A stretch of 58,634 nucleotides of DNA from IMG/VR virus record IMGVR_UViG_3300011244_000001. The stretch is one strand, 5' to 3'. This DNA comes from a virus. Below are positions 7,101-41,961 of this stretch, piece after piece (within the stretch, counting starts at the first letter, position 1; every line of letters starts with the position of its first letter). The translations under genes and the position numbers were made by a program. Under the pieces are notes generated by a model that saw only the letters and a list, made by a program, of their open reading frames with translations, was not told the origin of the DNA and searched no databases.

Positions 7101-7569
7101 TGATCTTGGCAATCAGGTAGGTTACACGATTGGCCTCTGTCCCGCCGTCGTGATTAAACAATGCGCTCGACCGGTCGGCAGCGGTGACAGAGTTGGCGTT
7201 AACCGTTGTCTTTATCTTGGCTGGGTCAATCCCAGCCGCGCCCGCAACTACCTCTTTTGTTGCCAGTGTGGGGTCGTATTCTAGCGGCCCCCACTCGCGC
7301 TGTGCGCCCACAACAACAATGCCGCGTGCGTCCTGAGTAGGCGGGGCTGTACCGGCTAAGTTGACGAGCGGGGAGTAAGAGGCGTGACCGAAAGGGGTAA
7401 CAAAGTTCGGGGAGCGAACAAGCCCGCTGTCTAGCTCAAGTGGTCCCCACTCCCGTTCTGCTCCCAGCACAGTTCTCCCCCGCGCATCACTGGTAGGGGG
7501 CGATGTGCCAGCTAGGTTAACTAGCGGCGAGTAGGAAGCATGATCGAAAGGGGTGAGGATTTTAGCCAC
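4171..7569 (-). CDS. Tail fibre with an internal SASA/SGNH-type carbohydrate esterase domain flanked by NAQSS-type repeats
   Basis: Esterase motifs FIINGQSNAGAQGD, KASLGGASITNW, GIMWAQIEAD and AHFDTAG resemble the sialate O-acetylesterase family. There is a tandem 52-aa N-terminal duplication and about 14-aa repeats xxNAQSSIxAxL on both sides of the esterase. Confidence 0.75.
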   Translation of the reverse strand: MAKILTPFDHASYSPLVNLAGTSPPTSDARGRTVLGAEREWGPLELDSGLVRSPNFVTPFGHASYSPLVNLAGTAPPTQDARGIVVVGAQREWGPLEYDPTLATKEVVAGAAGIDPAKIKTTVNANSVTAADRSSALFNHDGGTEANRVTYLIAKIRDSLNQRLVSTATIKGRPLTKLTGASISYNYSGTNWLSIDVYYLINPPPGTQGVNVVYNGTVNLADEITVITVPGAHQTAPNGADETAQDAGTTTNLPVAITTTVANSLILGAVAKTYQTHTAWTPGSGNVELTDGITGTTSAAGDLAYTDVYIVAATASAYTVSSTSDTNGRTVTTALEVKQAPSLVELAATINAVSSQSSVLAIARPLATAITAQSSIAASPTASIVVTSTVNAQSSIAAELTTNISFGAAINAQSSIVAPLTKLLELATTINAASSQSSSLTSGLPLAASANGGASISASLALDLLLASSVNAQSSTSSSSLDTIGQVALDAVISAQSGIAAGLITNISFEATANAQSSIVAPLTQRLPLASTINAVSDQSSSLTSPLSLASAVSTTSSISASLALGIPLASTINAQSSIVAAVGSAIPLIAAVNAQSGIVAPLTERLPLAGTVNAAASIAGANLSACPEPPALLFIINGQSNAGAQGDWSELSGYWQTAGGELQIYYPQGGLGTDYAALPSDGSQSVDGFGIELGMYEVLRTALPGRKVLFAKASLGGASITNWCSSLSCVGAEYDDVQELINLAISKALALPDVDDVKLAGIMWAQIEADTPVSGDATAYEARLERLITSHRSDAADSNLAVVFMAPHTHAESSGFPIIDAVVRDVETNGHHVALVETADLSEWVTSTAHFDTAGTLLFGQRYANEWLAVWEGDDCVEPGAGIQLGANIVAQSSDSATMTLRLPLAGSSTGVASIAANVMVAHTLVGSSAGVASTSANMAVVTGTLAASVSPQSSVAADLVVAKPLSATASGQSSTAAPLGIDRNLAATVNALSTFSATTAVGLALAGQVDGQGGIVGDLNPTAVALVADVEVQSSIAASLVLIDGLVASVQAQSSNAATLVNLVQLTGSSAGQGSTADSFTISLPLFGLSSGQAGAVATLEPTPVSVFSGTIRGVGRRGTVRSSGNIVSV

Positions 7570-8456
7570 TAGCTCACCATTTCAAAGAACCAGCGAGTAT
7601 CAAGCAGGGGCGGGAAGGCGTTGGAGTTTGCCCCTGCCGTCACGCTGGTCAGATTGGTTCCGTTGTCGAAGAGCGAGTTGTAGTTCTCGACAATCTCCCC
7701 TGTCGCTGTAGCCTGCATCCCCGTTGTGCAGTAGGACATAGTACAGTTATTGACGGTGATGGTCTGACCCCCGGCTAATGCCGTTGCCACACGCACGCCG
7801 CGTTCACTGTACTGAATCAGGCAGTTACGTATAGTGATGCCGCCTACCCGCGTTGAGGCTATGCCATCACCCCCACCAAAGATAAAGCAGTTCTCGACGA
7901 CATGAGCGGCAGTACTGACGGTCGCGCTATGGGTAAACAGAATACAGGTATTTGCTCCCTGCCGTTTGGTGAAATAGCAGTTGCGAATGACGTTTGTGGT
8001 ACCTGTCCCGCCTACGCTGATGTGTTGCGCCCCGGTCGCTGGGCCAAAGTAACAATTTTCGATAATCCAGTTACCGCAGGCGGTTATCAGCGTAATGCCT
8101 GCCCCGGTCGTCAGGTCAATAGTAAAGCCCTTAAATGTTCTGTAGTTTTTGGAGGTTGCGGTAATGGCATTGGCGCGTACTTCCGTTTGGTCGTTGTCGC
8201 TACCGGTAATCCTGACTGGCCCCCCTACGCCATCGGTATTCGTGCCGAGAAAATCACCAATGTAGGTAATGGGGTTCCCAGCCGATCCACTGACATCAAC
8301 GGTCAGCAACTCACGGTAGGTCCCTGGCCCGACATAAACGGTATCACCAGCGACAACGGGGGTATCCTCCACCCCATTCAAGGTGAGTTTCCTTAACGCC
8401 CATGTTAGGCCGCTATTGGCATCACTGCCGCCTATTCCAACATAGCGAGTAGCCAC
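7569..8456 (-). CDS. Right-handed beta-helix (pectate-lyase-fold) tail protein
   Basis: Periodic NCYF / RNCYF / ENCFI / RNCLI / NNCT turns. GTG start at 8456 preceded by GGAGG. Confidence 0.6.
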   Translation of the reverse strand: MATRYVGIGGSDANSGLTWALRKLTLNGVEDTPVVAGDTVYVGPGTYRELLTVDVSGSAGNPITYIGDFLGTNTDGVGGPVRITGSDNDQTEVRANAITATSKNYRTFKGFTIDLTTGAGITLITACGNWIIENCYFGPATGAQHISVGGTGTTNVIRNCYFTKRQGANTCILFTHSATVSTAAHVVENCFIFGGGDGIASTRVGGITIRNCLIQYSERGVRVATALAGGQTITVNNCTMSYCTTGMQATATGEIVENYNSLFDNGTNLTSVTAGANSNAFPPLLDTRWFFEMVS

Positions 8457-18400: not shown

Positions 18401-18793
18401 TTACGTCTTAGTTAGTGCGCCGTCAATACCAATTTGCAATTGGATGGACACGAAACCCTCAACTGGATAGCTTACTCGGTTGTCCCGAATAAGTCCTGCC
18501 CCTGCGTATGCGCCTCCAAAAGTTCCGGTACGGTCAGCGTCAAACGTGAAGGCAGCCGTTTTCCCCGGCGTGAGCGCGTTTAGAAACGGTCCCGGCACAG
18601 GAGAGGCGTTGTCTAGCAGAAGGTTCAGCGTGAATACGGCACTCGGCACACCTACAATTTGCGCCTTGTAGGTTTGGCCTGAAATGGCCTGTTCTGTGAT
18701 TTCGGCAGTCTCTTGGACTTCGACCTCGGTTAGGCCGTCAATCCCCCAGGTGCCGAATGTTGAGAGCATATTCGCTCCCGAAAATTTAGACAT
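18401..18793 (-). CDS. Major tail tube protein (likely)
   Basis: 130-aa beta-rich ORF immediately upstream of the chaperone genes. Confidence 0.55.
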   Translation of the reverse strand: MSKFSGANMLSTFGTWGIDGLTEVEVQETAEITEQAISGQTYKAQIVGVPSAVFTLNLLLDNASPVPGPFLNALTPGKTAAFTFDADRTGTFGGAYAGAGLIRDNRVSYPVEGFVSIQLQIGIDGALTKT

Positions 18794-20873
18794 ATCTTTT
18801 TCCCTCGATAACTAAAGCATTTTTCATCAAGCCTATCCCGTTCTGACCCAGCGATGGGTCTACATGTGGAAGAGCCTGTCCGACAAGCTCGATAATCTGC
18901 TGGGTTTCACGAGAGGGACCTGTCCTCCCGTTGTTGCGCCAGCTATCAAACTCGTCCCAGCCGGTGACGTTCGCGCCAATATGCCCTACATGGCAACTAA
19001 CATCTACCGCTGTCGTGAATCCGAGGGAACCTGCCCTACGGCAAAAATTAACGTCCTCGCCCTCCCCGTTCTGGCCCCACGTTACATAGTGGGTAAATTG
19101 CGGACCGTCTGCGTTGGTTAGCGCCTCGATTACCTCGCGCCTGATTAGCGTAAAGGCTAGTCCTGTGGCGTCCACCTGCATGACTGTTCCATTGGCGACT
19201 TCATCTACAAGCATACTGTAGTAAGTGCCATTTGTCGAATCGGGATGAGATGGTTGTTCTCCCTTTCTCAGCACGATAGCACGCGGAGGTTGGACGCGCT
19301 GGGTGGCAAAGGCGCTCACTATGTCATAGCGCCAGTTGGCCTTGTTGTCGCGCATCTTGTGCAAGGTGTCTGGATTGAATACCATGTCATCGTCAATAAG
19401 CAATAGCGAATCGCAGTGTGTTTGCAGAAAGCTCCTGATTAGATTGGTTGCGGCAAAATGAGTCGGCGCATGGATGGAAGGGTAGAGCCATTCATCGCCA
19501 GGGCGCATACCCTGATGGGCCAGGGCGGTAATCGCGGCGAAGCTCTGCGCCTCCGGGTGTTTGTTGATCCTGACACCTACGGCGATCTTCCCCCAACTCT
19601 CCGGTAGCTCCCACTCGTGCAGGCTGCCGTCATAATCAAAGTGAAAGAGATTCTGGTTGATCCGTTGCTCTGCTCCTGCTGTGCTTTCCTTCCAGCCCAC
19701 ATAATCGGCAATCTCGGCCAGAAGAACGGCAGGGAAGAAAATGAGGTCATCGTAGCTGACGGGCAACACCTGTATCCCCTGGTCGGCGCACCATTCGATA
19801 CACGCCGAGAAATCGCTTAGCTCCTGGCGTATGCGCCGTTCGGAGAACTCGTGGTTGTGGCCGGTAGACATACCGTAGGAGGCGACGAGCGCCAGTTCAT
19901 CACGGTAGACAGCAATGACGAGCGGGTTATTCTGCTGCGATAGGAATAGCTTCACGGCGTCCACGCTGGGCCAGATGCGCGTCCCCCACGCTTTCTCCCC
20001 TGCCGCTCCGTCTCGCCTGTAACCATACAGTGCCGATCCAACCTCACCAGCCGATAGCATGTCGGCCAGATCGTCATCGCGGTAGTAGGCGCTTGACGAT
20101 GGTGAATGTGCTGGGGCTTGGTCTACCATATCAACGCCCATTGCGCCTAGCGCGTGTGACACAACCGATGCACCGGAGCGAGAGGGACCGAGGACAATGA
20201 CGGGATTTCGCCTCAACTCCCCGGCCCGCTTGCGCCAATAAAGCAACTCCCCCGCCAAATGGTTGTCAGAAAAGGCTCCCTTGTCCCCAAAGGTGGACGA
20301 TACTCGCTCGTGTCGTATCACGCAGCCGTCAAACACGCCTATCTGTAGTCCGGCATCGCGTGCCAGATCGCACCACATGACGTCCTCGTGGCCGTAAAAC
20401 ACAAAGTCCTCGTCTAGCATCCCCACTTTTTCAATAGCGTGCTGCGGTAACAGGACGGCAGCGAAAGACACAGTTCCGTTAACCAGTCGTAATACCCCGG
20501 TTGTCTGCACCTGCTGTAGCAGCGAGCCGCCAATACCCTTTAGTCCCGCGCTTACCACGCCTAGCTCTTTGTACTGCGCCAGTTGTGCTATGAGGGAAAG
20601 GCCGTTCTTGGTAGCCAGAGTGCAGTCGTCGTTGAGGAGAAAATAGTCGTCGGGGCCACCAAACCTGATTGCCGTGTTGATTGCCTGGGCATACACAAAT
20701 GGGTCGGGGCGTTGCATGACCGCGACATCGTAGAGAACAGACAGTGGATACATTGTATCTACGTCGCCAGTCACAATACAGATATTTTTAAGCTGCTCGT
20801 TATCTAACCGAGCGATGCTATTGATGCACTCCAATGCCAACGCCGGGTTGTCACTAGGGATCACGATCTTCAT
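18786..20873 (-). CDS. Three-domain glycosyltransferase(GT2)-sulfotransferase-glycosyltransferase(GT2) protein (695 aa)
   Basis: N-terminal GT2: MKIVIPS..., LLNDDC, HEDV. Central sulfotransferase: GPSRSGAS (5'-PSB loop) and VYRDELALVAS (3'-PB like). C-terminal GT2: LLIDDDMVF and GEGEDVNFC. ATG 20873 follows GAAGGA and the upstream stop at 20878. Confidence 0.7.
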   Translation of the reverse strand: MKIVIPSDNPALALECINSIARLDNEQLKNICIVTGDVDTMYPLSVLYDVAVMQRPDPFVYAQAINTAIRFGGPDDYFLLNDDCTLATKNGLSLIAQLAQYKELGVVSAGLKGIGGSLLQQVQTTGVLRLVNGTVSFAAVLLPQHAIEKVGMLDEDFVFYGHEDVMWCDLARDAGLQIGVFDGCVIRHERVSSTFGDKGAFSDNHLAGELLYWRKRAGELRRNPVIVLGPSRSGASVVSHALGAMGVDMVDQAPAHSPSSSAYYRDDDLADMLSAGEVGSALYGYRRDGAAGEKAWGTRIWPSVDAVKLFLSQQNNPLVIAVYRDELALVASYGMSTGHNHEFSERRIRQELSDFSACIEWCADQGIQVLPVSYDDLIFFPAVLLAEIADYVGWKESTAGAEQRINQNLFHFDYDGSLHEWELPESWGKIAVGVRINKHPEAQSFAAITALAHQGMRPGDEWLYPSIHAPTHFAATNLIRSFLQTHCDSLLLIDDDMVFNPDTLHKMRDNKANWRYDIVSAFATQRVQPPRAIVLRKGEQPSHPDSTNGTYYSMLVDEVANGTVMQVDATGLAFTLIRREVIEALTNADGPQFTHYVTWGQNGEGEDVNFCRRAGSLGFTTAVDVSCHVGHIGANVTGWDEFDSWRNNGRTGPSRETQQIIELVGQALPHVDPSLGQNGIGLMKNALVIEGKRYV

Positions 20874-20877
20874 GTTG

Positions 20878-21267
20878 TTATATTCCTTCTGAATAAATGG
20901 ATATTCCGGTAATGCTCCGGTACATTTGTAGGTCGTGTTCGTAGTAGTAGGTGGCGACGTCATTGGCTGCCCTGCTCACGCTGGGCGGGCCGACGAGCGT
21001 CAGGCCGAGAAAGTGGTCAATGACTGCCTTTTGGATTTCCAGTACGGTTGATAGGTCGCGGGCGATGCCGTCTACCTGAAAGCGAGTTTGGTACTCAGCA
21101 ATGCGGCCAGACAAGATGATGTTGGGCGCGGAGTTAAGCAGCCAGTAGGTAGCTGCTGGTACCTCGCTGTCTGGGCGGAGGATTAGCGGGTTCAGGCGTG
21201 TTCCGATCCAGGGCGTTAGGACAGGCACCAGCTCGTCGTGAAAGAGCTTCATTATCCCTGTGGTCAT
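20878..21267 (-). CDS. Tail terminator / tail completion protein (DUF3168-like)
   Basis: 129 aa. Sits between the gp10-like gene and the tail genes, with an ATGA-type overlap with its upstream neighbour. Confidence 0.45.
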   Translation of the reverse strand: MTTGIMKLFHDELVPVLTPWIGTRLNPLILRPDSEVPAATYWLLNSAPNIILSGRIAEYQTRFQVDGIARDLSTVLEIQKAVIDHFLGLTLVGPPSVSRAANDVATYYYEHDLQMYRSITGISIYSEGI

Positions 21268-21788
21268 TACGCCCTCCCTAAGTTGACGAACTTCTTGTAC
21301 TCGTCAATGGCGATTTGCCGCAGGTCTTTCTTCTTGGCTGCCAACGAAGGCATGATGAACGGGCGGGGGGCTACGCGATTACCAAAGGCGCTCGTCCAGC
21401 CGCCGAACTCCAATAGCCGAGCAACGCCTGGCCTGCCATCGGGATCACCAACATCCAGGTTAGCGCGGCCCTTCGAGCTTTCGTTTACCGTAATCGCTCC
21501 CTTTAGTCCCCCAGACTGGTCTGCTGGGGCCTCCCCCGGTGCAGACGAGGGCTTGTTGTAGTAGTTAGACCACCAGCCGCCCGACCAGGGTGCGCCCTCG
21601 CTCCATACCGTTCCTGATTTTGGAGCCTCTAGGCGTTTGATAATCTCTTCCTTGACAGCCTCGGCCATCGCTTTCGATATGGGCGTCATGGCCCGGTCGG
21701 AGTCGGCGTCAATTTTCCGCACGCGGGCAGCGATGCGCTGGCGGCCTTTCTCGAATTGACTAAGGTTCACATTCATTCGGAGCGACAT
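21267..21788 (-). CDS. HK97 gp10-like head-tail joining protein
   Basis: 173 aa. Assigned by position and by the N-terminal lysine/arginine-rich helix pattern. Confidence 0.45.
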   Translation of the reverse strand: MSLRMNVNLSQFEKGRQRIAARVRKIDADSDRAMTPISKAMAEAVKEEIIKRLEAPKSGTVWSEGAPWSGGWWSNYYNKPSSAPGEAPADQSGGLKGAITVNESSKGRANLDVGDPDGRPGVARLLEFGGWTSAFGNRVAPRPFIMPSLAAKKKDLRQIAIDEYKKFVNLGRA

Positions 21789-23465: not shown

Positions 23466-24377
23466 TTACGCTACCTGGTGGCCGAAAATCCAGCGCCAGT
23501 CGCTCCATCCGTAGGTGTAGCGCATGTAGCCGCGATAGCGAGCCATCAGGTGATAGTCACCGGTCGGATCAACGGCGAACTCCAAAGGCACGCGGTCGAA
23601 CCAATTCAGGTAGATGCCAGCCAACGACGGATCAATCATGAACCAGTCATTCGTATCTTCCAGGTAATCCCAAACGACAACCTGAAAGCCCTTGCTACGG
23701 ACATAGTTCGGGAACCCGCCAGAAGGTGATTCGGCCTTGTTCATCGCCTGTGTCGCGTAGTAAGCCGTTTCCTCTAGCCCAGGCGGAACCAACAGAACGG
23801 TCGGGTTAATCGGGACCAGGTTGTTGGTATCGTCTACGAATTTTCGCATCAACGCACGAGTGGCAATGATGGAGTCGTAGGTCAGGGCGCTCGTTCCCTT
23901 GTTGCTGTGAGAAGGCGTTGCCGCGCCGGGTTTAAGCGGATGGTCCGTTGCGACCAGCGCCTTGCCGTCCCCGCCTAGATTGGCCGAGGAGAAGGCATTG
24001 GTAAACACGGCTGCACCGTGCTTTTCGCGGGTACGCTGGGCAGTCAGGGCCAACATGCGAACGCGGGAGTTGATGATGTTGTACTGGTCGTCGTCTACCA
24101 GCTTGCGCTCGATAGCGATGCCTTTCGTGTACTCAACATGCACATAGTCGGTCGGGAAGCCCGGAGCGGTCGAGTCATACTCAATGCGCCCGTCGTACTC
24201 GGTCCAGTCACCCATCCCGCCAATGCTCCGATCATGCTCGGCAGCTTTGCTCGAACTCTGCATGTTAAACAGTTTCGGCAAAACTGACTCCGCAATCAGC
24301 GGGGCGCGGGTTTGTTCGAAAATCACTCGAAGGCCCGGTTCCAACAGGAAGGGCCATTGCTCGGAAATTAAAGCCAT
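23466..24377 (-). CDS. Major capsid protein (Mu gpT-like, HK97 fold)
   Basis: 303 aa. FNMQSSSKAAEHDRSIGGMGDWTEYDGRIEYDS...IERKLVDDDQY matches the gpT-type pattern S..E.y..g..p.mreW.GeR...diEDD. Preceded by scaffold and decoration genes. Confidence 0.7.
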   Translation of the reverse strand: MALISEQWPFLLEPGLRVIFEQTRAPLIAESVLPKLFNMQSSSKAAEHDRSIGGMGDWTEYDGRIEYDSTAPGFPTDYVHVEYTKGIAIERKLVDDDQYNIINSRVRMLALTAQRTREKHGAAVFTNAFSSANLGGDGKALVATDHPLKPGAATPSHSNKGTSALTYDSIIATRALMRKFVDDTNNLVPINPTVLLVPPGLEETAYYATQAMNKAESPSGGFPNYVRSKGFQVVVWDYLEDTNDWFMIDPSLAGIYLNWFDRVPLEFAVDPTGDYHLMARYRGYMRYTYGWSDWRWIFGHQVA

Positions 24378-25372: not shown

Positions 25373-25528
25373 CTAGCCTTCCTCTGGTACTAACTTGATG
25401 GACCCCTTCCCTGCCCCGCAAAAGTCGCAACCCTTGACCTCGCCAAGCGCCTTTGTGCCTTTAATGGCCCACTGCGATTTACATAGCTGACAACGTGCGA
25501 CCCAATAACGGGTTTTCTTAACTGACAC
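25373..25528 (-). CDS. Small Zn-ribbon protein (51 aa), below the ORF-track length cut-off
   Basis: GTG 25528 is preceded by GGGGAGGA. Translation VSVKKTRYWVARCQLCKSQWAIKGTKALGEVKGCDFCGAGKGSIKLVPEEG. TAG abuts the scaffold ATG. Confidence 0.5.
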   Translation of the reverse strand: MSVKKTRYWVARCQLCKSQWAIKGTKALGEVKGCDFCGAGKGSIKLVPEEG

Positions 25529-25540
25529 GAAAGAGTCCTC

Positions 25541-25577
25541 CCCAAAACAAAAAGAGCATACTTATTAGGTATGCTCT
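25541..25577 (-). terminator. Rho-independent terminator
   Basis: 9-bp perfect stem agagcatac / gtatgctct (25553-25561 / 25569-25577), followed on the minus strand by TTTTTGTTTT. Lies downstream of gene 25633..25872. Confidence 0.6.
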
Positions 25578-25632
25578 CTCATTCTACGTTAATGTATGTT
25601 ATGTTGTCAAATACCAGCTAAAGCTAGTCAAA

Positions 25633-25872
25633 TTAGAAGGGTAGCGACGTAAACCTACCTCCTTGTAGCCAGCCGAGGAACCGACCATCGCCATCATAGA
25701 CCGTTGTGTACGACTTTGTAAACAGAACTTTAGCGTTTGGGGGCAACACGCCGTCACGGTGGAGATAGTCGAACATTTCGGGGTCATCGTCCTCCTCCGT
25801 GTCGAGAAAGTTAATTCCCTTCTCGATAAGCGCCTGCTCTCGCGCCAGTTCAAGGTCACTCTTTCTAGCCAT
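25633..25872 (-). CDS. Hypothetical protein (79 aa), paralogue of the upstream gene
   Basis: Shares the ...VYDGDGRFLGWLQGGRFTSLPF motif with 25865..26242. Confidence 0.55.
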   Translation of the reverse strand: MARKSDLELAREQALIEKGINFLDTEEDDDPEMFDYLHRDGVLPPNAKVLFTKSYTTVYDGDGRFLGWLQGGRFTSLPF

Positions 25873-26242
25873 TTGTCACCTCGTCAGTATACATATCCGT
25901 TCCGGTCAGTTCGTCCCACTTGTCGGCTGGTTCCGTTCCTAACTCCCAGCGGCCATCCTCGTCAGGTTCGGACGGCAGGGGAAGAAATTCTCCGTTCTTT
26001 ATCCAACCAATGAACTCACCTCTGTCATATACCCTCTCATAGTATCGAGCAATAACGATTATCCGGCCCTGCTCGGTGTCTCCGGGCACGATATTCATTG
26101 GCTCGTACTCTGTGGAATACATGACAGACTCCGGTGGCATAAGAGAGGCGAGATAGCGCTCCTGGTCCAGGTCGGTTAGCTCTGGGCGCGGGGGGTAGAG
26201 GCGAGGCTGTTGCTTCTTGGGCTTTTTGGTTCTACTTGCCAT
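25865..26242 (-). CDS. Hypothetical protein (125 aa), paralogue of 25633..25872
   Basis: ...VYDRGEFIGWIKNGEFLPLPSEP resembles the C-terminus of the downstream gene. Confidence 0.55.
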   Translation of the reverse strand: MASRTKKPKKQQPRLYPPRPELTDLDQERYLASLMPPESVMYSTEYEPMNIVPGDTEQGRIIVIARYYERVYDRGEFIGWIKNGEFLPLPSEPDEDGRWELGTEPADKWDELTGTDMYTDEVTNG

Positions 26243-26921
26243 TTTCGGCCTCCTTCATTTCTAGTTGCTTGTCTAATACTGACTCCACATCAGATGCAAG
26301 CTTGGCCAGCTTTCCCTGCCGTTCGACTTCTTCTAGGCTCCTTCCCTTTAAAGCAACGCCGGTGGCCCAACGTGCCACGCTATCGGGTGTACCATCCAGA
26401 ATAGCATCAATCGCTCTCGCTCGAATATAGTCACGGACACGATCCTTGAATTGATCGATCTTCCACGCTGGCTCACCGCTGTCTCTACCTACCGAAGCGA
26501 AGTCATCAGGGTCGTCGCCTGTCTCAATCGTGAATAGCTCTCTCAAGGCGTACTTGAACGCGCCGGTCTGTGCCTTGTTGAGCGACTTGTCGCCCATATC
26601 GCTTCCCTCCCCTGGCGTGCCGACCATGATCCATTCGCCGCTCGTGTGTAGTAACATGAACGTTGACGAAACGCGAGAGAGGTTCATCGTCTTGCCGTCC
26701 TTCACGCTGTAGGTTTCGAGGGGAAGGACATTGGAATGGACAGGGATAAGCGATAGCCCGTTGGCAACCATGTGTGGGCGAATCGCCTCGATCAAAGCCT
26801 TCTCTCCGGCATAGGTATAGTTGAGGTTTTTGCCCGCCTGCTTCTGCACGTACCCAACCTGCCCCATCACGTCGTTGATAGCTACTGCGATCTCGTTTAG
26901 CGTATCAGAATGTTCAATCAT
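26232..26921 (-). CDS. erf: ERF-family single-strand annealing recombinase
   Basis: N-terminal pattern LNEIAVAINDVMGQVGYVQKQAGKNLNYTYAGEKALIEAIRPHMVANGLSLIP is typical of Erf. Adjacent to SSB. Confidence 0.65.
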   Translation of the reverse strand: MIEHSDTLNEIAVAINDVMGQVGYVQKQAGKNLNYTYAGEKALIEAIRPHMVANGLSLIPVHSNVLPLETYSVKDGKTMNLSRVSSTFMLLHTSGEWIMVGTPGEGSDMGDKSLNKAQTGAFKYALRELFTIETGDDPDDFASVGRDSGEPAWKIDQFKDRVRDYIRARAIDAILDGTPDSVARWATGVALKGRSLEEVERQGKLAKLASDVESVLDKQLEMKEAENGK

Positions 26922-26941
26922 TGCTTTTCTCCTATTCTATA

Positions 26942-27343
26942 TCAGAAGGGGATAGACTCGTCGCTCTCAGCCGGTACATATGTGGCGCTGGAATTGTCGA
27001 AGCGCGGGCCAGTGTCCTCATCTTTGTCGGGCCAGTCAATTAGCTTCAATTCATAGGCCGTCACCTCAAAGCTGGCGCGAGGTCCGTTGCCGTTATCCCA
27101 GACACGCGGTCCACCATCAGGCTCAGCCTGCAATGTGCCACGCACAATCACCCGCGCACCCTTGCGCCCGTACTGCTCAATGAAGTCGCCGGTCTTTTCC
27201 CAGGCGGTGACGCGGAACCAGAGGGTCGTCTTTTCGCCCTTTACGGTCTTGTCAACCGCTACCGAAAAAGTAACGGGTGCGCTTTCTACTCGGCGTGTCG
27301 GCTCTCCGCCCATTCGCCCTGCCAGTGTAATATCGTGATACAT
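26942..27343 (-). CDS. ssb: Single-stranded DNA-binding protein
   Basis: OB-fold pattern (ITLAGRMGGEP...TLWFRVTAWEK...GARVIVRGTLQ) and the acidic tail DESIPF. Confidence 0.85.
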   Translation of the reverse strand: MYHDITLAGRMGGEPTRRVESAPVTFSVAVDKTVKGEKTTLWFRVTAWEKTGDFIEQYGRKGARVIVRGTLQAEPDGGPRVWDNGNGPRASFEVTAYELKLIDWPDKDEDTGPRFDNSSATYVPAESDESIPF

Positions 27344-27460
27344 AGCTGTCTCCTAGAATATAATTGTTTCGCATGTAGCGAATAGCCTTATATTAGCAGA
27401 CAGCAGAGGGAAAGGAGGGGGTTCTTATGCGACTCTCAGGTAAGAACATCATAAGAATAG

Positions 27461-27489
27461 TTCCTTTTGGGGGCGGGACGATCTATAAT
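27461..27489 (+). promoter_or_regulatory. Candidate promoter of the plus block (perfect TATAAT -10, weak -35)
   Basis: TATAAT at 27484-27489, about 8 nt before ATG 27497, which implies a leaderless mRNA. The -35 position reads TTCCTT. Confidence 0.3.
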
Positions 27490-27496
27490 GCGAGCT

Positions 27497-27985
27497 ATGT
27501 ACGCTATTCAAACAAACATCTTCGGTAATCACGCAGCTGCCTGCTGGAACTGCGGGCAGGTGTTCGGGCCGCTCATCACGTTCACAGGAACCGAGTGTCC
27601 TGTGTGCCTGGCCGACAACAGGCTATCTCCTGGCCCCGCACAGGAAGGGGAGTTCCGGTTTTGGCGAGAAAATGATGGGGTAAACGAAGGGGTTGCCCAA
27701 AGCAATCTTGCCCAACGCTACGTCATGCACTCGCCAACGGGCTTCGAGTGGGGGTACGGCGGAAGTGGCCCGGCTGACCTCGCTCTCAATATGGTGCAGT
27801 ATGTACTAGAGAATAACCAGTGGCAAGGAGAGCGCGTGCGAAGGGGTTGGTTCGAAGAAGCCGAGGCGTTCCACCAGGAGGTCAAGAGAAACTGGCTGGT
27901 TAATATACCCCGCGAGGGCGGAACTATTGATTATCGTCAATTCGAGAGGGTAGTCATGGAGTTAGTGAAACGGTATGATGCCTAG
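27497..27985 (+). CDS. Hypothetical protein with an N-terminal Zn-ribbon
   Basis: The track ORF starts at TTG 27467; ATG 27497 (MYAIQTN) is more likely. Contains CWNCGQ...CPVC and the conserved-looking HSPTGFEWGYGGSGPADLALN. Confidence 0.55.
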   Translation: MYAIQTNIFGNHAAACWNCGQVFGPLITFTGTECPVCLADNRLSPGPAQEGEFRFWRENDGVNEGVAQSNLAQRYVMHSPTGFEWGYGGSGPADLALNMVQYVLENNQWQGERVRRGWFEEAEAFHQEVKRNWLVNIPREGGTIDYRQFERVVMELVKRYDA

Positions 27986-28196
27986 ATATGTTACGCACGG
28001 TCCAGCCCGCAGGGGGCAATGGCAGCACATCGGTCGCATGTTCCGCGAACACCCAGAGACGACCGATCAGGCGCTTGTGGACATCGCCGCCGATCTTAAT
28101 CGCAGCTTTGGCGGGCTAGGGCTGTACGGGTCGCTGGAACTGGCGGCGACACTTATCCGCTTTTTTATAGAGAGAGAACAGAAGGAAGGATGGTAG
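27975..28196 (+). CDS. Hypothetical protein (73 aa)
   Basis: Operon-style overlap with its neighbours. Confidence 0.5.
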   Translation: MMPRYVTHGPARRGQWQHIGRMFREHPETTDQALVDIAADLNRSFGGLGLYGSLELAATLIRFFIEREQKEGW

Positions 28197-28198
28197 AT

Positions 28199-28468
28199 AT
28201 GGCAAGTTTTATAGACCAAACGTTCACAGTAAGCTACGGTGATCTTAAGATTGTGGAGGAAACAAAAATGTATAGTCTAAATCCAAGTAAGTTGAACCTG
28301 ATTGAGTATGTTGTATATGACGGCGAAGAGGTCATGGACACCGAAATTGTCGTTGTCACCGGCAAGGATCACGTCGCCCTCAACGTTCACCTGCTGCGCG
28401 ACCAACCAGAAGGGGCGAAGTTGTGGTACGCCGTACTGTTGGTATTTGATAAGGCAGAGGGCGAATGA
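28199..28468 (+). CDS. Hypothetical protein (about 89 aa)
   Basis: ATG 28199 has GGAAGGA about 9 nt upstream. The track start at 28190 is less well spaced. Confidence 0.5.
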   Translation: MASFIDQTFTVSYGDLKIVEETKMYSLNPSKLNLIEYVVYDGEEVMDTEIVVVTGKDHVALNVHLLRDQPEGAKLWYAVLLVFDKAEGE

Positions 28469-28572
28469 GCGAGCTTGCGTTTGCCTTTCTAGTTGCTGCG
28501 TGTGTCCTTACCGCGCTGGCTGTTGGGGCGATTATTCAGATAGTACGGCAGGAGATAAATAGAAATGAATGA
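28465..28572 (+). CDS. Possible 35-aa single-TM peptide
   Basis: ATGA overlap with the upstream stop. Translation MSELAFAFLVAACVLTALAVGAIIQIVRQEINRNE. Not in the track because it is under 60 aa. Confidence 0.3.
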   Translation: MSELAFAFLVAACVLTALAVGAIIQIVRQEINRNE

Positions 28573-28780
28573 AGATGAGATTTTCTGGGCGATGAACATT
28601 GGTGACATGAGCGCACGCGAAGCGGCATTATATGCCGGGGTAAGCGAGGCGGAGATACAGAAACGCTTCGATCAGTGGGTAGGCGAGCCTGGGGATTCGG
28701 AAGGATTTGCTTTTCCCGATCCAGCCGAAGAACGGCAGGAGAAGAAAGGTTGGCTTAGTAAGCTATTCGGGGGCGGGTAA
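28565..28780 (+). CDS. Hypothetical protein (71 aa)
   Basis: The ATG is preceded by CGGCAGGAGATAAATAGAA, an iterated-motif copy that supplies the AGGAG RBS. Confidence 0.55.
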   Translation: MNEDEIFWAMNIGDMSAREAALYAGVSEAEIQKRFDQWVGEPGDSEGFAFPDPAEERQEKKGWLSKLFGGG

Positions 28781-29013
28781 TGGACAAAACATTTGTCAGA
28801 GGCGAACTGTACTTGTTTGGCGAAGATGTGTTTATGGCAACCTATGACTTGGACAAGGCTCGTATAGTCAGAGCGTGGGAGGGATGGACGCCAACGCGCT
28901 CTAGAACCTTTTATCACTGGTTGACATGGGAAAGCGGGCTATTCGAGCCAGTGAGCAGCCATGACGGGAAAAAGCTAGCAGACTACCTGTTGTACGAACT
29001 TGGGAACGGTTAG
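28780..29013 (+). CDS. Hypothetical protein (77 aa)
   Basis: TAATG overlap with the previous gene. Convergent with the MuF-like gene. Confidence 0.5.
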   Translation: MDKTFVRGELYLFGEDVFMATYDLDKARIVRAWEGWTPTRSRTFYHWLTWESGLFEPVSSHDGKKLADYLLYELGNG

Positions 29014-29780
29014 CTGAATCTAATGTAGCATCGGCATGAGGTGAGGCAGTCGCGCTCACCAATGGGGATCAGACTTCCAATCGGAACTGATCCCCTTGCC
29101 GTTTCTGCTAGACAACCCTCACAATGCTCTGCTGCACCCAGCACGTTTTCTTCCATCGTGTATCCCCCCACGCTCGCCCACATCCGCGCCAGTTCCCACA
29201 ACGTCTCTCTCCCTGCCGATATATACATCCCCGCCCGACGCTTAAATTGCCCGTCAAGGCGTATAGTCCCCGCTCGTATCCCGTTAGCTAGACGCGCCAG
29301 GAACGCTAACTCTCTGGCGATCATACCGTTGATGGTCTGTTGCACTTGCGGTATTTGCAGGAAGAGCGGGCCAAATATTAGTAAGGCAGCCGTCATGTGG
29401 CTATCCTCAATTGCCCCCTTCATCTGCCGCTCCCACTCGTCAACTGTTATCTTTCCCTGCCGTAGCTGCTCGGCAAGCTTGAGGTAGTCTAGTCGCTGCT
29501 TATCAATGGCAGAATCGTACTGCTGAATGAGTTCGTCTAGGTCGCGGGGGCCGTTGCGGGAAGCCCAGGTGTTGTTCCATTCCAGGTAGAGAACGACAGC
29601 CAGGTTGAGGAAAAGCAGCAGGTAAGCGCGTCTGTCCTCCTCGTCATTTATTCCCTGCCGATCCAGTAGCGCCAGGAACTCCTCGCGGTCGGTCGGGAAA
29701 TCCTCTGGGCGAGGGACGACAATGCCCCGGTCAAGGAAGCGGTAGGCTTTATTCCTTGCCTGGCGGAGGAGCTTCGTCAT
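29010..29780 (-). CDS. Head morphogenesis protein (Mu F / SPP1 gp7-like)
   Basis: The C-terminus ...HCEGCLAETARG...CLTSCRCYIRFS fits the F-like H.NCRC ending. ATG 29780 (MTKLLRQ) is preceded by AGGAGGAAAAGAAAG. The track start at 29948 lies inside the portal gene. Confidence 0.65.
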   Translation of the reverse strand: MTKLLRQARNKAYRFLDRGIVVPRPEDFPTDREEFLALLDRQGINDEEDRRAYLLLFLNLAVVLYLEWNNTWASRNGPRDLDELIQQYDSAIDKQRLDYLKLAEQLRQGKITVDEWERQMKGAIEDSHMTAALLIFGPLFLQIPQVQQTINGMIARELAFLARLANGIRAGTIRLDGQFKRRAGMYISAGRETLWELARMWASVGGYTMEENVLGAAEHCEGCLAETARGSVPIGSLIPIGERDCLTSCRCYIRFS

Positions 29781-31167
29781 CTTTCTTTTCCTCCTGTGGC
29801 GCTTTACCGTCAGGCCCCAGGCCAGCCTTAGCAAAACGCTGGGCGATTCGAACCGGATCGTTAGTCTCGTCCATCTCGGCCAATAGCTCGGCCTCTTTCT
29901 CGGAGAACCCGGCCACGATTGCAGCTTGCTTGATTCCCGCCCCTGCACCGGTCAAGGCAGTTAGTACAGTCGCCTTCTCTAGCAGCTTCGCCGTCTTTTC
30001 GCGGGTGTCGAAGTCGGCCCAGATCGGCTTGATAATCTGCGCTGTGTCGTATGACGTCCCACCAAAAGCGTTAGAGAGCTTAAGCATCATCCGCGCTGTC
30101 TCGGTCCAGCCTACGCCGATCTCGCTCGATACCGTCTGTGCTTTGGATAAAAGGATGCCCTCATGGGCCTTGTGTGTACCCTCGGAGGCCATTTGCCCCG
30201 ACTGTTGGAAGTACGACAGCGGGGTTCCCGTCACCTGACCTATGCGCTGCACAAAGCTGTCCACGACTTCAATCAGCGGGCGCAGGTCCTCGCCGGGGAA
30301 CACCTTAAGGTCGGCATCGGCAGCGCTTTTAGTTGAGTTGATGATGACGCCGGGGGAGAGTCCCGTTTCGTCTACCGTGTCGCCCACGAGCCAGATGATC
30401 CGAAAGCCCGATGCGTCAGCAGCAGCCAGTAGGTCAATGACAGCTTTGTTGAGCGCGTTCTGCATGGGAATGCCGGGGGATAACTCAGAGAGGCCGTGCG
30501 TGAAGCCCCTGGCCCGGTTGGTGAAGTGGATCATGGGGATGCCAATGGGCTTGCCCTTGTCGGTCCAATCAATGACGGCAGGAAAGCCATCTCTGGCCCA
30601 GGGCAACCAATTGTACTCAGTCTCGGTCGTGGCGAAGTAGCGGCTAATCTGGTGCGGCTCGTAGACGTTTAATCGCCTGAGCTTACCCATCTCCGGCCCC
30701 CATTCGACCCACCATCGCTTTGTTGCCGCATTAGGCTTGCCGGTCGATCCATCATAGTGAATCTGGAATCCCCCTCGTCCGTCGTAGGCAAGCTGGGAAG
30801 AGACGACTGGACGCTTTAGTTCCTCGTCCCACTCGACGAGGGCAGCGCCGTCTCCGTCACGAAGGGTAGAGACGTGGATAGCCGACTGCTTGGCGGGCAT
30901 AGCAAGAAGCTCCCACCATTCGTTGAGGGGCTTTTCGTCTTTGGCGTCAAAGGCGTGGACGTTCAGGCGATTGGCAACGCTGTCTACCACGATGCCCATG
31001 TAATTTGCGCTAAAGTCCTGGTTGGGGCGCAGTTGTAGGTAGGCGCGTTGGCGGTCGGTTATCTGTGCCTGATGGTCGCCGTCGTAATATGCGCGGTACT
31101 GGCGGTAAAGCTCGGTACGCTCCTCCGCCTCGGAAATTAGGTGATCGAGAAAAGGGTTGTTTGTCAA
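29749..31167 (-). CDS. Portal protein
   Basis: 472 aa, immediately downstream of TerL and upstream of the MuF-like gene. Acidic C-terminal tail. Confidence 0.75.
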   Translation of the reverse strand: MTNNPFLDHLISEAEERTELYRQYRAYYDGDHQAQITDRQRAYLQLRPNQDFSANYMGIVVDSVANRLNVHAFDAKDEKPLNEWWELLAMPAKQSAIHVSTLRDGDGAALVEWDEELKRPVVSSQLAYDGRGGFQIHYDGSTGKPNAATKRWWVEWGPEMGKLRRLNVYEPHQISRYFATTETEYNWLPWARDGFPAVIDWTDKGKPIGIPMIHFTNRARGFTHGLSELSPGIPMQNALNKAVIDLLAAADASGFRIIWLVGDTVDETGLSPGVIINSTKSAADADLKVFPGEDLRPLIEVVDSFVQRIGQVTGTPLSYFQQSGQMASEGTHKAHEGILLSKAQTVSSEIGVGWTETARMMLKLSNAFGGTSYDTAQIIKPIWADFDTREKTAKLLEKATVLTALTGAGAGIKQAAIVAGFSEKEAELLAEMDETNDPVRIAQRFAKAGLGPDGKAPQEEKKDDEAPPPGKE

Positions 31168-31207: not shown

Positions 31208-32575
31208 CTAAGCATAATGTCGAATCTTAGCCGACCCGCTGCCCTCGTCTATGTGCGCGATGAGGTAGCGCACGGTATCTAGGCCGTGATTATCCAGGTC
31301 AATAGGTACTTCGTCTTTCGTACTGACCTCTTTCTGATCCTCGATATTGCGCCATACGTAGCCGCCAAACTCTTCTTCGGTACAGGTAGGCTTGAACATC
31401 AACTCTAGTTGCTCGTCTACCTCGACCCGCGCCCCGCGTAGAAAGTAGATACGTGGCCTGCCGTCACGCTGAATCTTTAGCCGTTCCTGCACCTTCTCAA
31501 TGCCGGTCTTAATGTCCTTCTTGGCCCCTATGGTCGGGATGCCAGCTTTCTCTAGGACAGCCCTATCTTCGGCGTCATGATCGCAAATCATCGGCGCTTC
31601 GTACTCTTCCCCTGCCGAGTACGTAGCAATGCCGGGTTGCCCGTTCACGCCCTGGATATGTTCAATGGTCGTGCGCCCTGTATAGTATATTTCGCGGTAG
31701 CGGTATAGACGACCGTCTCCATCAGCGGCCCACCAGGTAACGCAGGCAGGATGCGTATATCCGAAGTCCATGACGCGGTAGCGCTTCCAGTTGTCGGGGA
31801 TGGGGAACGGGTCAATGATGTGAATAGCCTCGTCAAAGGCGTCATAGACCTGCCCCTCCGAACCAGCCCATAGCCCCAGCACGCCGCGTTTGTAACGGAG
31901 TCCCGTTAGTGAGTACAGGCGCTCCATTGTGATTTTACCCTGCGCTGTCCACTCTTGCCGCTCGTCGTCCCAGAGCGACGGGTTGTCCTGATGGACGGCA
32001 TTAAACATTCGTAGCTTACCGGCAGCTACACGTTTCAGAAGCCAATGGTTAGGGGGGCCGGGATTGCAGTCGAGGATAACCTGGGAGTACGGCATGTTCC
32101 CGGCCCGGCCAGTGGTACGCGAAAGCAGCTTCTCGTGGTCGTCCAGCAGAAGCTCCTCGGCCTGATTGATGTAGGCTAAGTCGTACTCAGCGGAGAGAAT
32201 CTTGTCGCTGTTGTCCATGCCGCCGATGACAATGCGCGATCCGTTGGGGTAATTAACGACCTCCGGCCTGCCGCCCCCAAAGACAGTGACGGGGCATAGT
32301 TCGTGACCGGGGGGATAGGGTAGTACCTTCTTAATAAATGTCTGGTAAGCGGAGTTGACGAGGGCGGCGTATTGCTTACGGGCGAAGAGGGCGTTTGTGC
32401 CGGGATACTTGACGCACAGGTTATGTACCTTATGTAGAGCGCCGAATGTCTTTCCAGTCTCGTATGGACCGGACAGCACAAGCTCTGGCTCTTTGCTGAA
32501 CCAGGCGCTCCTCGCTGCCCCTCTTAATTTTATACCGTCGTTGGAAAGCTTAACTGCGTATTCTGTATCACTCAC
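31208..32575 (-). CDS. terL: Terminase large subunit
   Basis: Walker A GPYETGKTFG and a Walker B-like LAYINQAEEL. C-terminal nuclease region with DFGYTHP...DTVRYL. 455 aa. Confidence 0.8.
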   Translation of the reverse strand: MSDTEYAVKLSNDGIKLRGAARSAWFSKEPELVLSGPYETGKTFGALHKVHNLCVKYPGTNALFARKQYAALVNSAYQTFIKKVLPYPPGHELCPVTVFGGGRPEVVNYPNGSRIVIGGMDNSDKILSAEYDLAYINQAEELLLDDHEKLLSRTTGRAGNMPYSQVILDCNPGPPNHWLLKRVAAGKLRMFNAVHQDNPSLWDDERQEWTAQGKITMERLYSLTGLRYKRGVLGLWAGSEGQVYDAFDEAIHIIDPFPIPDNWKRYRVMDFGYTHPACVTWWAADGDGRLYRYREIYYTGRTTIEHIQGVNGQPGIATYSAGEEYEAPMICDHDAEDRAVLEKAGIPTIGAKKDIKTGIEKVQERLKIQRDGRPRIYFLRGARVEVDEQLELMFKPTCTEEEFGGYVWRNIEDQKEVSTKDEVPIDLDNHGLDTVRYLIAHIDEGSGSAKIRHYA

Positions 32576-32775: not shown

Positions 32776-33327
32776 TTATTCTCCTCTACCCATACCTTGC
32801 CAATCGCTGGCAACCAAAACCTCGTCGAACCAGGTGACAGTCGGGCGCGATTCCCACAACGCCTCCATAAACTGAAAGTCGCCGCCGTAGTCAAGCCCGA
32901 ACGCCCATATATTGTCGTACCATACGTCGCGCCGCACGATGAAGTCCTGCCCAGAGATTTCGTTGGCGATTGGCATACGGCTGCGCCAGACCGCCTCTGA
33001 CGGCAACTTACCCAGCCCGGCGCGTAAGTCACGAAAGACGACAATATCCGGTTCCCGTGCTAATTCAACGACTCGCTTTAGCATTTCAACCGCGTAGGGC
33101 GTAGCAAGGTAATCGTCGTCGTCGAGCATCAGCACATATTCGCCCTGGGGGATGTTGCGATGATGGTAAAACTGCATGTTAGCCCAAGCTATCCCCCTGC
33201 CGATCTCGTCTGCCAAAACGATGTGTTCTAGATCGGCGTCGGTCTGTCCTCGAATGGAGGAACGGCAGGAAAGAAGGAGGTTGGGGCGCGAGAGCATGTG
33301 GCGGGTGATGATGGAAAGGAATGGCAT
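32776..33327 (-). CDS. Glycosyltransferase family 2-like protein (183 aa)
   Basis: MPFLSIITRH... N-terminus and the LMLDDDDYL (DxD) motif. Confidence 0.6.
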   Translation of the reverse strand: MPFLSIITRHMLSRPNLLLSCRSSIRGQTDADLEHIVLADEIGRGIAWANMQFYHHRNIPQGEYVLMLDDDDYLATPYAVEMLKRVVELAREPDIVVFRDLRAGLGKLPSEAVWRSRMPIANEISGQDFIVRRDVWYDNIWAFGLDYGGDFQFMEALWESRPTVTWFDEVLVASDWQGMGRGE

Positions 33328-41959: not shown

Positions 41960-41961
41960 TG

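Follow-up and report, generated by a model that had tools for sequence, protein, structure and literature searches.

What would a phage do with a single polypeptide in which a sulfotransferase lies between two glycosyltransferases (GTs), and why would the gene for it be found inside a tail module? We address this question for the gene at 18786..20873 (minus strand) of IMG/VR virus record IMGVR_UViG_3300011244_000001, a stretch of 58,634 nucleotides to which we refer as the window. A reading made from the sequence alone had described the gene product as a 695-aa fusion of a GT2-like domain, a sulfotransferase and a second GT2-like domain, encoded within the tail and head-tail structural operon. 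Using family profiles, structure models and a comparison of related loci, we find that the domain architecture and the location of the gene are solid, and we infer a sulfated product and a virion target. Sulfated glycosylation of virion proteins is our best reading of the locus, and we give it a probability of roughly 0.45.

The window ends in an exact 77-bp direct repeat (1..77 and 58558..58634), and the contig is therefore a circularly assembled, complete genome with about 58.56 kb of unique sequence and nearly all of its genes on the minus strand. The longest open reading frame (ORF) for the fusion gene is 18786..20963 (minus strand, 725 aa). The start at 20873 (MKIVIPS...) is common to all 11 homologues, lies 4 nt past the stop of the preceding gene and has an AAGGA 8-12 nt upstream. 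Because this start is shared with the homologues and preceded by AAGGA, the 695-aa length and the coordinates given by the sequence-only reading are right, and each of the motifs that it had listed was found at its place. The gene has the following features, with domain names as predicted:

18786..20873, minus strand: whole gene, GT-A/sulfotransferase/GT-A fusion protein (695 aa, 76 kDa, pI 5.1).
20223..20873, minus strand: N-terminal GT-A domain, beta4GalT/K4CP-A1-like (aa 1-217), with LLNDDC at aa 79-84, N81-D82-D83 at 20625..20633, and E163-D164 in a 'GYGxEDxD' motif.
20379..20396, minus strand: YGHEDV (aa 160-165) of the N-terminal domain.
19590..20222, minus strand: central sulfotransferase domain of the type using 3'-phosphoadenosine 5'-phosphosulfate (PAPS) (aa 218-428).
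20166..20189, minus strand: GPSRSGAS (aa 229-236), the putative 5'-phosphosulfate-binding (5'-PSB) loop of the central domain.
20070..20087, minus strand: YYRDDD (D266) of the central domain.
19968..19988, minus strand: WGTRIWP (R299) of the central domain.
19878..19907, minus strand: R324...S332, the putative 3'-phosphate-binding (3'-PB) segment of the central domain, in YRDELALVAS (aa 323-332).
18954..19589, minus strand: C-terminal GT-A domain of the minimal virus type (aa 429-640), like A197 of Sulfolobus turreted icosahedral virus (STIV) and phrog_1574.
19377..19400, minus strand: LIDDDMVF (aa 492-499) of the C-terminal GT, holding the DXD motif D494-D495-D496.
19041..19067, minus strand: GEGEDVNFC (aa 603-611) of the C-terminal GT.
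18975..18992, minus strand: HVGH of the C-terminal GT.
18786..18953, minus strand: C-terminal helical tail (aa 641-695), with a predicted local distance difference test (pLDDT) of 35-57, ending in an 'LLkkAre'-like helix in which L682 and L683 are conserved.

An AlphaFold2 model of the full-length protein has a pLDDT of 78.5 overall and >90 across most of the N-terminal domain. The 695-aa protein holds no transmembrane-like segment (maximum Kyte-Doolittle 19-residue mean of 1.49) and no signal peptide or clear membrane anchor was seen in it, and it is predicted to be soluble.

We find that the central domain is, as judged from family profiles and the predicted fold, a compact PAPS-type sulfotransferase of ~205 aa. 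With the single window sequence, Pfam and NCBIfam gave no sulfotransferase, and a phmmer search of the PDB gave only a chance match to PdxS. When the 12 orthologues were compared with Pfam, half of them (6/12) matched Sulfotransfer_3 at E<=0.1 (best 1.5e-5), 3/12 matched Sulfotransfer_1, two Sulfotransfer_4 and one Stf0, and none matched a Pfam kinase family. A narrow profile of the domain (A2, aa 218-428) yielded 42 PDB matches at E<=10, of which about 35 were sulfotransferases (best CurM ST, 0.012) and only one was a kinase, a dephospho-CoA kinase with a non-significant E of 0.25. We also built a broad profile (A3, 24 sequences) by adding the central domains from 16 relatives of the two-domain form, whose identity to the window domain is 18-23%. 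It matched Stf1 (4.4e-7), Stf9 (1.5e-5) and SULT1A1 (2e-5) in the PDB, with sulfotransferases making up 39 of the 40 matches and no kinase among them. Additionally, the homologous domains of two relatives, P0023 (30.2 bits) and P0034 (39.8 bits), exceed the gathering score of 27 bits of Sulfotransfer_3 (PF13469).

The alignments place the expected binding segments of sulfotransferases on conserved segments of the family. The consensus 'GtgRSGtS' aligns on the 5'-PSB loops GLVRTGTT (Stf1), GMPRTGTT and PKSGTT (SULT1A1), and also on GVPRSGTT of TPST1; 'WGvKdP' aligns on 'WVLKNPSH' of Stf1; and 'veRsreaiiaS' aligns on the 3'-PB segments 'THRPVETIMAS' (Stf1) and 'ARNAKDVAVS' (SULT1A1), and likewise on VRHPYSVIES of CurM. 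The 3'-phosphate is bound in sulfotransferases by an Arg and a Ser spaced by eight residues where a helix begins, R130 and S138 in the mouse oestrogen sulfotransferase. In the window protein the 5'-PSB loop reads G229-P-S-R232-S-G234-A-S, with the Arg present in 11/12 orthologues and the Gly in 24/24 A3 sequences. Across these 24 sequences the only invariant residues of the catalytic core are G234, W296, R324 and S332, with R232 near-invariant, and by alignment these would largely be PAPS-contacting positions. Two residues are candidates for a catalytic role, D266 (Asp in 12/12 orthologues; Asp, Glu or Asn across the A3 sequences) and R299 (Lys or Arg in 24/24, lying on 'K-N-P-S-H' of Stf1 in the alignment).

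The predicted structure of the domain agrees with the profiles. A separate model of the central domain has a pLDDT of 86.4 and a predicted template modelling score (pTM) of 0.85, and in Foldseek sulfotransferases fill every one of ranks 1-19 (E 8e-6 to 2e-4, TMq up to 0.62), the PDB matches including TPST2, OLS-ST, CurM-ST, Stf1, a tick TPST, SULT1A1, Stf0, Stf9 and Teg12. The first guanylate and adenylate kinases come at rank 20, and the best matches in BFVD are annotated viral sulfotransferases (E 6e-5 to 1e-3). A Walker A motif (G-x4-G-K-S/T) is absent, since the position after G234 holds Ala, Ser or Gly in place of Lys and is followed by Ala, Ser or Thr. A P-loop kinase is thus ruled out by the missing Walker A, by the lack of kinases in the Pfam and A3 searches and by their place below 19 sulfotransferases in Foldseek. 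The sequence-only reading had called the domain a sulfotransferase from its two PAPS signatures; the residues of both are conserved, and family profiles and fold point the same way.

The fold could be put to other uses than sulfating a glycan. The sulfotransferase might target a protein side chain, such as a tyrosine in the manner of TPST or RaxST, or a small molecule, or it might be an inactive spacer or a PAP-binding regulator between the GTs. The best single structural match is human TPST2 (E 8e-6, TMq 0.59-0.61), the domain is small (~205 vs ~280 aa) with acceptor-binding parts that cannot be modelled on known enzymes, and the PSB Arg is lost in two family members, P0009 and P0021. However, TPST, polyketide, glycolipid (Stf0/Stf1) and cytosolic sulfotransferases all match with E-values inside one order of magnitude, and the fold therefore gives no acceptor specificity. 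The invariance of G234, R324, S332 and W296 and the near-invariance of R232 at 18-23% identity point to selection for PAPS binding and catalysis, and as the domain is permanently fused to a GT in all relatives, the simplest explanation is that the two act on the same glycan. We consider a non-glycan target or an inactive domain improbable.

Both outer domains are predicted to be GT-A/GT2-like glycosyltransferases, as the sequence-only reading had proposed, and PHROG, family-level Pfam, Foldseek and PDB profile searches agree on this. The window protein itself scores 22.9 bits against Pfam Glycos_transf_2 (cut-off 23.3) over aa 476-538, and in PHROG it matches the glycosyltransferase family phrog_2456 at aa 50-177 and phrog_1574 at aa 485-639 (6e-15). 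Among the 12 family members, 11 match Pfam Glyco_tranf_2_3 and Glyco_transf_7C, with E down to 9e-8. Single-domain Foldseek matches of the model are ppGalNAc-T2, STIV A197 and WrtF, over 210-270 columns with E of 3e-7 to 1e-6 and a root-mean-square deviation (rmsd) of 4-6 Å. We then used N- and C-domain profiles that include stand-alone relatives. The N-domain profile matches residues 95-333 of K4CP in the PDB, its GalNAc-transferase (A1) domain (3.2e-7), with 'FvgYGleDndy' aligned on the beta4GalT-type motif 'FTHWGGEDNEF' of K4CP and the DXD aligned with the K4CP DXD region; weaker matches are ppGalNAc-T and beta4GalT7. The C-domain profile matches a single structure, STIV A197 (2c0n, 1.3e-4). 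D82-D83 of the N-domain is near-invariant, stand-alone relatives included, and D494-D495-D496 of the C-domain is invariant and aligns with LDED of A197.

With the whole chain, Foldseek returned enzymes with two GT-A domains, LARGE1, K4CP, PmHS2, LH3 and COLGALT1 (best E ~2e-9). Because the template modelling (TM) score of these matches is only ~0.2, with an rmsd of ~25 Å, we regard them as architectural and not specific. It could be that the two GT-A domains alternate as a bifunctional polymerase, with the sulfotransferase acting on the growing chain to yield a long, sulfated, glycosaminoglycan-like polymer, either free or anchored to the virion. That LARGE1, K4CP and PmHS2 are the best whole-chain matches speaks for a polymerase, as does the N-domain match to the K4CP GalNAc-transferase domain. 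The TM score and rmsd, however, indicate that two GT-A domains are present and not that their arrangement is shared; the C-terminal domain resembles only STIV A197 and not a GlcA-transferase domain; and the sulfotransferase+GT core occurs with a single GT in ~20 representative families, which speaks against an obligatory alternating pair. An alternating polymerase is in our view slightly more improbable than a non-glycan or inactive sulfotransferase. K4CP (E. coli K4), PmHS2 (P. multocida) and LARGE1 are like the window protein in having two GT-A domains per chain, and the K4CP GalNAc-transferase domain shares the beta4GalT-type WGGED/GYGxED motif of the N-domain. They differ in that they have no sulfotransferase and that their second domain is unrelated to the C-terminal GT of the window protein; a polymerase activity is not implied.

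A search of 5.8 billion proteins gave 11 homologues at 40-57% identity, 10 of them full length. The best name given to any of these is 'GT2 family glycosyltransferase', and because the family carries no other name, its sulfotransferase domain is missed in current annotation. The three-part architecture is kept in the homologues, with the catalytic residues of all three parts invariant or nearly so. When the fusion was aligned with the 11 homologues, the conserved residues fell in three blocks: N81/D82/D83, Y160-G161-x-E163-D164 and H188 in the first; S231-R232-S233-G234, Y263-x-R265-D266, W296-x-x-R299-x-W301-P302, R324, S332, R347 and E351 in the second; and D494-D495-D496, G603-x-G605-E606-D607 and H631 in the third. 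Variable linkers separate the blocks, a pattern indicating that purifying selection acts on each of the three putative active sites.

An exhaustive HMMER profile search of 1.84 billion cluster representatives found the fusion of all three parts in only 4 clusters at 50% identity. The three-part form is thus rare, and the two-part core of sulfotransferase and GT is spread more widely among phages. About 20 representatives of 430-550 aa hold the central and C-terminal parts only, many of the best 150 representatives listed are stand-alone N-type or C-type domains of ~220 aa, and a few proteins carry other fusions of these domains. Among 185,579 species genomes, no bacterial or archaeal genome was found to contain the fusion gene and no prophage copy of it was seen. 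The only match there (L006) is on a contig of a Candidatus Woesearchaeota metagenome-assembled genome (MAG), CAZYKW010000007.1, at 8001..8426. This segment is C-terminal-GT-like (33% identity over aa 474-634), and the 21-kb contig is possibly a viral one binned with the MAG. A tblastn search of 50,697 phage records gave matches to two spring-water contigs alone, at 30% identity and confined to the C-terminal GT, and sequence searches found no cultured member of the phage clade. The fusion is a phage-only gene in the collections searched.

The gene stands in a conserved structural module, with the following members and candidate acceptors:

31208..32575, minus strand: terminase large subunit.
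29749..31167, minus strand: portal.
23466..24377, minus strand: major capsid protein of 303 aa and alternative candidate acceptor (phrog_371 major head protein, 1.3e-16; orthologues match PF25209 Phage_capsid_4).
21267..21788, minus strand: neck1/tail-completion gene.
20878..21267, minus strand: putative tail terminator or tail completion gene directly upstream of the fusion (phrog_347, E 5e-4; the L001 orthologue weakly matches PF11367 Tail_completion_gp17).
18401..18793, minus strand: putative tail tube gene of 130 aa directly downstream of the fusion, a candidate acceptor (phrog_10528 major tail protein, E 0.009).
18786..18793, minus strand: 8-nt overlap of the fusion stop with the tube start, ATGTCTAA.

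The gene order is terminase, portal, an insert with SSB/ERF and further genes, scaffold-sized ORFs, capsid, four small head-tail ORFs, neck1, terminator and fusion, followed by the putative tube, two small ORFs, a 1112-aa ORF of tape-measure size, distal tail proteins and large fibre proteins. We found the same order around the fusion, a ~130-aa gene, the fusion, a 130-aa, a ~115-aa and a ~1000-aa gene, in all contigs with enough flanking sequence (L001-L005 and L007-L012). The stop/start overlap suggests that the fusion and the tube are probably translationally coupled, and orthologous pairs overlap by 4 or 8 nt (L001, L004, L005). The putative tube is 69-80% identical among relatives, making it more conserved than the fusion enzyme, and in IMG/VR its family occurs only on contigs that also carry the fusion gene (5/5). 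The siting between a tail terminator and a tail tube gene, as the sequence-only reading had it, is therefore borne out by the conserved position and the overlapping stop and start, with the names of the two neighbours themselves being weak calls.

More distant relatives are also found beside virion genes. We observe 142 IMG/VR loci that encode a relative of at least the C-terminal GT, and eight loci (L013-L020) with a two-domain form consisting of sulfotransferase and GT. By phmmer and hhalign, no homology was detected between the structural proteins of the window and those of L013-L020, and since these proteins are unrelated, the shared location does not come from shared ancestry of the whole module. 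In L015, the only locus whose neighbours were scanned, the order is a protease, a major head protein, a 748-aa lysin-domain protein, a 161-aa protein, the sulfotransferase+GT gene and small conserved ORFs. We also took 51 dereplicated phage homologues of the C-terminal GT and counted what lies at positions -2, -1 and +1, 140 proteins in all. They include nine major head proteins (phrog_371), eight proteins annotated 'virion structural protein' (phrog_1731) and 12 further copies of the same GT family, and others are GTs, nucleotide-sugar epimerases and an S-adenosylmethionine (SAM) methyltransferase. By a rough test, a count of nine or more head-protein neighbours in 51 has a binomial P of ~9e-4 for a 60-gene genome.

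Five of the two-domain loci (L013, L014, L016, L017 and L019) share conserved flanking ORFs, a 161-aa ORF upstream and a 129-147-aa ORF downstream. The 161-aa ORF lies directly upstream, is 68-88% conserved and rich in Ser, Thr, Asn and Ala (L013 6721..7206, L014 7479..7964, L015 7462..7947, L016 7484..7969, L017 9042..9527), and the 129-147-aa ORF directly downstream is rich in Trp. Neither has a match in Pfam, PHROG or the PDB, and both are candidates for the glycan acceptor. In P0023 (670 aa) and P0034 (606 aa) a different N-terminal domain of ~175-190 aa, class I methyltransferase-like by eye and with no Pfam match, takes the place of the GT; no homology was found that would make these domains kin of the methyltransferase and GTs of mycobacteriophage Corndog. 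Because the sulfotransferase and the C-terminal GT recur as a pair, alone or with a different N-terminal domain, this suggests that the pair is the functional core and that this clade acquired the N-terminal GT as an addition.

The same evidence bears on whether the substrate could be a glycan of the host and not of the particle. The enzyme could add sugars and sulfate to a host envelope glycan or to its cytoplasmic precursor (lipid-linked O-antigen, capsule or teichoic-acid units), as a late surface change that would, for example, block the adsorption of progeny or competitor phages to infected cells and debris. GT2/GT-A enzymes often act on undecaprenyl-linked precursors, and weak matches of the N-domain profile include PglI (an undecaprenol-PP glucosyltransferase) and TagF. 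Enzymes for surface glycans are a heavy investment of this phage, with a SASA esterase, beta-helix proteins and a GH25 protein, and the best dual-domain fold matches, K4CP, PmHS2 and LARGE1, are polysaccharide polymerases. However, an enzyme of lipid-linked precursors would sit poorly with a protein that has neither a transmembrane segment nor a signal peptide nor a clear membrane anchor. No integrase was found in the Pfam scans and the gene is in no bacterial genome of the species set searched, unlike the GTs of classic seroconverting prophages. In addition, the strict linkage to terminator and tube, and the relatives beside head genes, would be unexpected for a moron that acts on the host surface. 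Modification of an envelope glycan is unlikely, and stands ahead of the other alternatives that we weighed.

The genome supplies none of the donors. Pfam scans covering essentially all ORFs of this complete genome gave no match to an APS kinase, ATP sulfurylase, PAPS reductase or nucleotide-sugar enzyme, and because the genes for their synthesis are missing, PAPS and NDP-sugars must come from the host. The same genome content bears on hypermodification of the phage DNA, in which modified bases would be glycosylated, and possibly sulfated, against restriction. GT-A-like phage enzymes that glycosylate DNA do exist, and one orthologue has a very weak match to Pfam TAGT (TET-associated glycosyltransferase, E 0.062). 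However, Pfam finds no hydroxymethylase, TET/JBP or dNMP kinase in the complete genome and only a Dam-like methylase, the gene lies in the tail module and not in a replication module, and we know of no precedent for sulfated DNA. A role in DNA modification is very hard to credit.

Sulfated glycosylation of virion proteins is the best reading, on the analogy of the virion glycosylation of mycobacteriophages and of STIV A197. The fusion, whose three catalytic modules are intact as judged by computation and whose gene is predicted to be co-transcribed with the tail genes, would work in the cytoplasm as a soluble, trifunctional builder of glycans, produced alongside the tail proteins late in infection. 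Before the particle is assembled, or while it is, the enzyme would attach a short O-linked glycan to virion proteins, with the tail tube and/or the major capsid protein as the most likely acceptors. The A197-like GT would add a sugar that the sulfotransferase then sulfates at one hydroxyl, and the beta4GalT-like N-terminal GT, as a later addition, would extend the glycan. The result would be an anionic coat of sulfated glycans on the particle. A likely benefit is that the virion surface would be shielded or re-charged, so as to stick less to cell debris and polysaccharide or to evade recognition, a benefit that has also been proposed for glycosylated mycobacteriophages. The fuller statement, that this clade, and more broadly the phages with a sulfotransferase+GT, coat tube and/or capsid with sulfated O-glycans by means of a single fused enzyme using PAPS and nucleotide sugars of the host, is more tentative, and we hold it to be possible at somewhat lower odds.

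Several observations weigh against this reading. The sequence identifies no acceptor, and the two candidates have a Ser plus Thr content of 17% (tube) and 13% (capsid) with no obvious Ser/Thr-rich tail. The position in a late operon indicates timing and not target. The terminator and tube calls are themselves weak, being built on PHROG matches of 5e-4 and 0.009, a weak Pfam match of an orthologue, and position; a PDB profile search with the putative tube gave no significant match. As for the enzyme, the window protein alone has no Pfam sulfotransferase match at E<=1, the assignment coming from family profiles and predicted structure, and the PSB Arg is replaced by Gln in the orthologue P0009 and by Glu in the two-domain relative P0021. 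The host that would have to supply PAPS is indicated in contradictory ways, since the portal points to actinophages (~25% identity to their portals) and the capsid to a Bacillus phage (39.5% identity). Finally, hidden Markov models (HMMs) of the three domains found nothing at E<=10 among Corndog gp32-gp49. Since the enzymes are not detectably homologous, the mycobacteriophage precedent is one of analogy only, in which the window enzyme may work like those cassettes and is not a member of them.

In that precedent, as summarised in PMC11600133 (citing Freeman et al. 2023, Cell Host Microbe 31:1216), cluster O mycobacteriophages use an O-methyltransferase and three GTs to modify the capsid and the tail tube, and summaries in PMC11600133 and PMC13313380 cover the virion glycosylation cassettes of Che8, Corndog and Myrna. 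In Corndog, genes for a TylF-type O-methyltransferase, a GT2-like and a GT25-like enzyme lie between the portal and protease genes. The window resembles these cassettes in having phage GTs and a glycan-tailoring enzyme inside the structural gene block. It differs in that the tailoring enzyme is a predicted sulfotransferase instead of a methyltransferase and that all parts are on one polypeptide at the terminator/tube junction. In the mycobacteriophages the products modify capsid and tail tube proteins, and here such glycans are predicted from the genes, with no actinobacterial link established. Phage-encoded virion glycosylation is a recent discovery and, to our knowledge, has so far been documented only for actinobacteriophages, where it affects antibody recognition.

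The second precedent is A197, an essential viral GT-A that is thought to glycosylate the STIV major capsid protein (PMC10551542). Like the C-terminal GT, which has it as the only solved structure matched by its profile, A197 is virus-encoded and soluble and contains a DXD motif. Unlike it, A197 is a stand-alone protein of 197 aa from an archaeal virus and has no sulfotransferase partner; its donor and acceptor are likewise unproven. For the central domain the closest comparison is the bacterial PAPS-dependent sulfotransferases of Pfam Sulfotransfer_3 and the Stf family (Stf1 of M. tuberculosis, 2zq5; Stf9 of M. avium, 2z6v; Stf0, 1tex; and the CurM and OLS sulfotransferases, 4gbm/4gox). The likeness extends to the fold, to an Arg rather than a Lys in the PSB loop, and to residue-for-residue alignment of the 5'-PSB (G-x-x-R-S/T-G-T/S-T/S) and the 3'-PB (R-x7-S). 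In contrast, the window domain has ~205 as opposed to 270-390 aa, lacks the acceptor-binding insertions, is set between two GTs, and belongs to a protein that falls below every Pfam threshold.

Sulfotransferases as such are not new to phages. Stand-alone genes for them have been annotated in cyanophages and marine phages, with a function called unclear (PMC10580990). The best BFVD matches to the central domain are viral sulfotransferases of this kind, from Synechococcus phage S-SCSM1, uncultured marine phages, OM43-phage metagenomic viral genomes (MVGs) and the GT25-sulfotransferase of Hokovirus. These differ from the window protein in being single-domain and treated as auxiliary metabolic genes (AMGs), with no GT fusion except in the giant virus and none reported in tail or head operons. 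A full-text literature search found no work that combines phage, sulfotransferase, glycosyltransferase and tail tube, and none that describes virion sulfation. What is new is thus the fusion and its location and not the presence of a sulfotransferase in a phage.

A sulfotransferase between two GTs inside a tail operon points to virion decoration of a second and chemically distinct kind, by anionic sulfated glycans. If the reading is true, it would be the first time that a sulfated post-translational modification is found on a bacteriophage particle, and it would give the particle a glycosaminoglycan-like polyanionic coat that may alter adsorption, aggregation, or recognition by hosts, predators and immune systems. 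It also offers a testable role for the sulfotransferase AMGs of phages. Additionally, a 205-aa sulfotransferase and a one-chain GT-sulfotransferase-GT could serve the enzymatic synthesis of sulfated glycans.

Other parts of the genome also encode enzymes related to glycans. The sequence-only reading had pointed to a second, separate GT2 at 32776..33327. This ORF has an LMLDDDDY motif, but the only support for the call is marginal (PHROG E 0.0036, hhalign probability of 19% to the N-domain profile, no Pfam GT). The ORF encodes 183 aa with an SIITR... motif, possibly a truncated or minimal GT-A, and its phmmer matches in the PDB to designed PPR proteins are repeat artefacts. The several glycan-degrading enzymes that were also claimed are indeed present, and consist of a SASA esterase (4171..7569), two beta-helix proteins (7569..8456 and 49824..51428) and a GH25 protein (51419..54424). 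The first of these is a 1132-aa tail protein with a SASA carbohydrate-esterase domain at aa 634-868 (E 1e-18), and directly after it comes the 295-aa pectate-lyase-like beta-helix protein of 7569..8456. These two are probably receptor-modifying tail fibres directed against an acetylated polysaccharide. A 286-aa protein at 48511..49371 matches Pfam DUF1996 (E 4e-47) and adjoins the second beta-helix protein and the 1001-aa protein with an internal GH25 muramidase; we have not seen DUF1996 discussed for phages.

The head module is split between the portal and capsid genes by a block at 25373..29487 containing genes of recombination and replication (ERF at 26232..26921, an SSB, DUF6166 at 27467..27985) and a run of plus-strand ORFs. 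The same split is found in relatives (L001 4705..5910, L004 4325..5742, L005 3745..5161). The region 40000..47000 has a GC content of 44-47%, as compared with ~55% elsewhere, and many small minus-strand ORFs with no family match, and it is probably an early region or recently acquired DNA. In a pooled scan of small ORFs, two matched Pfam Gp80 (fibre I protein of Ralstonia podophage GP4; best E 9.6e-40), one was a pentapeptide-repeat protein and one matched DUF7249.

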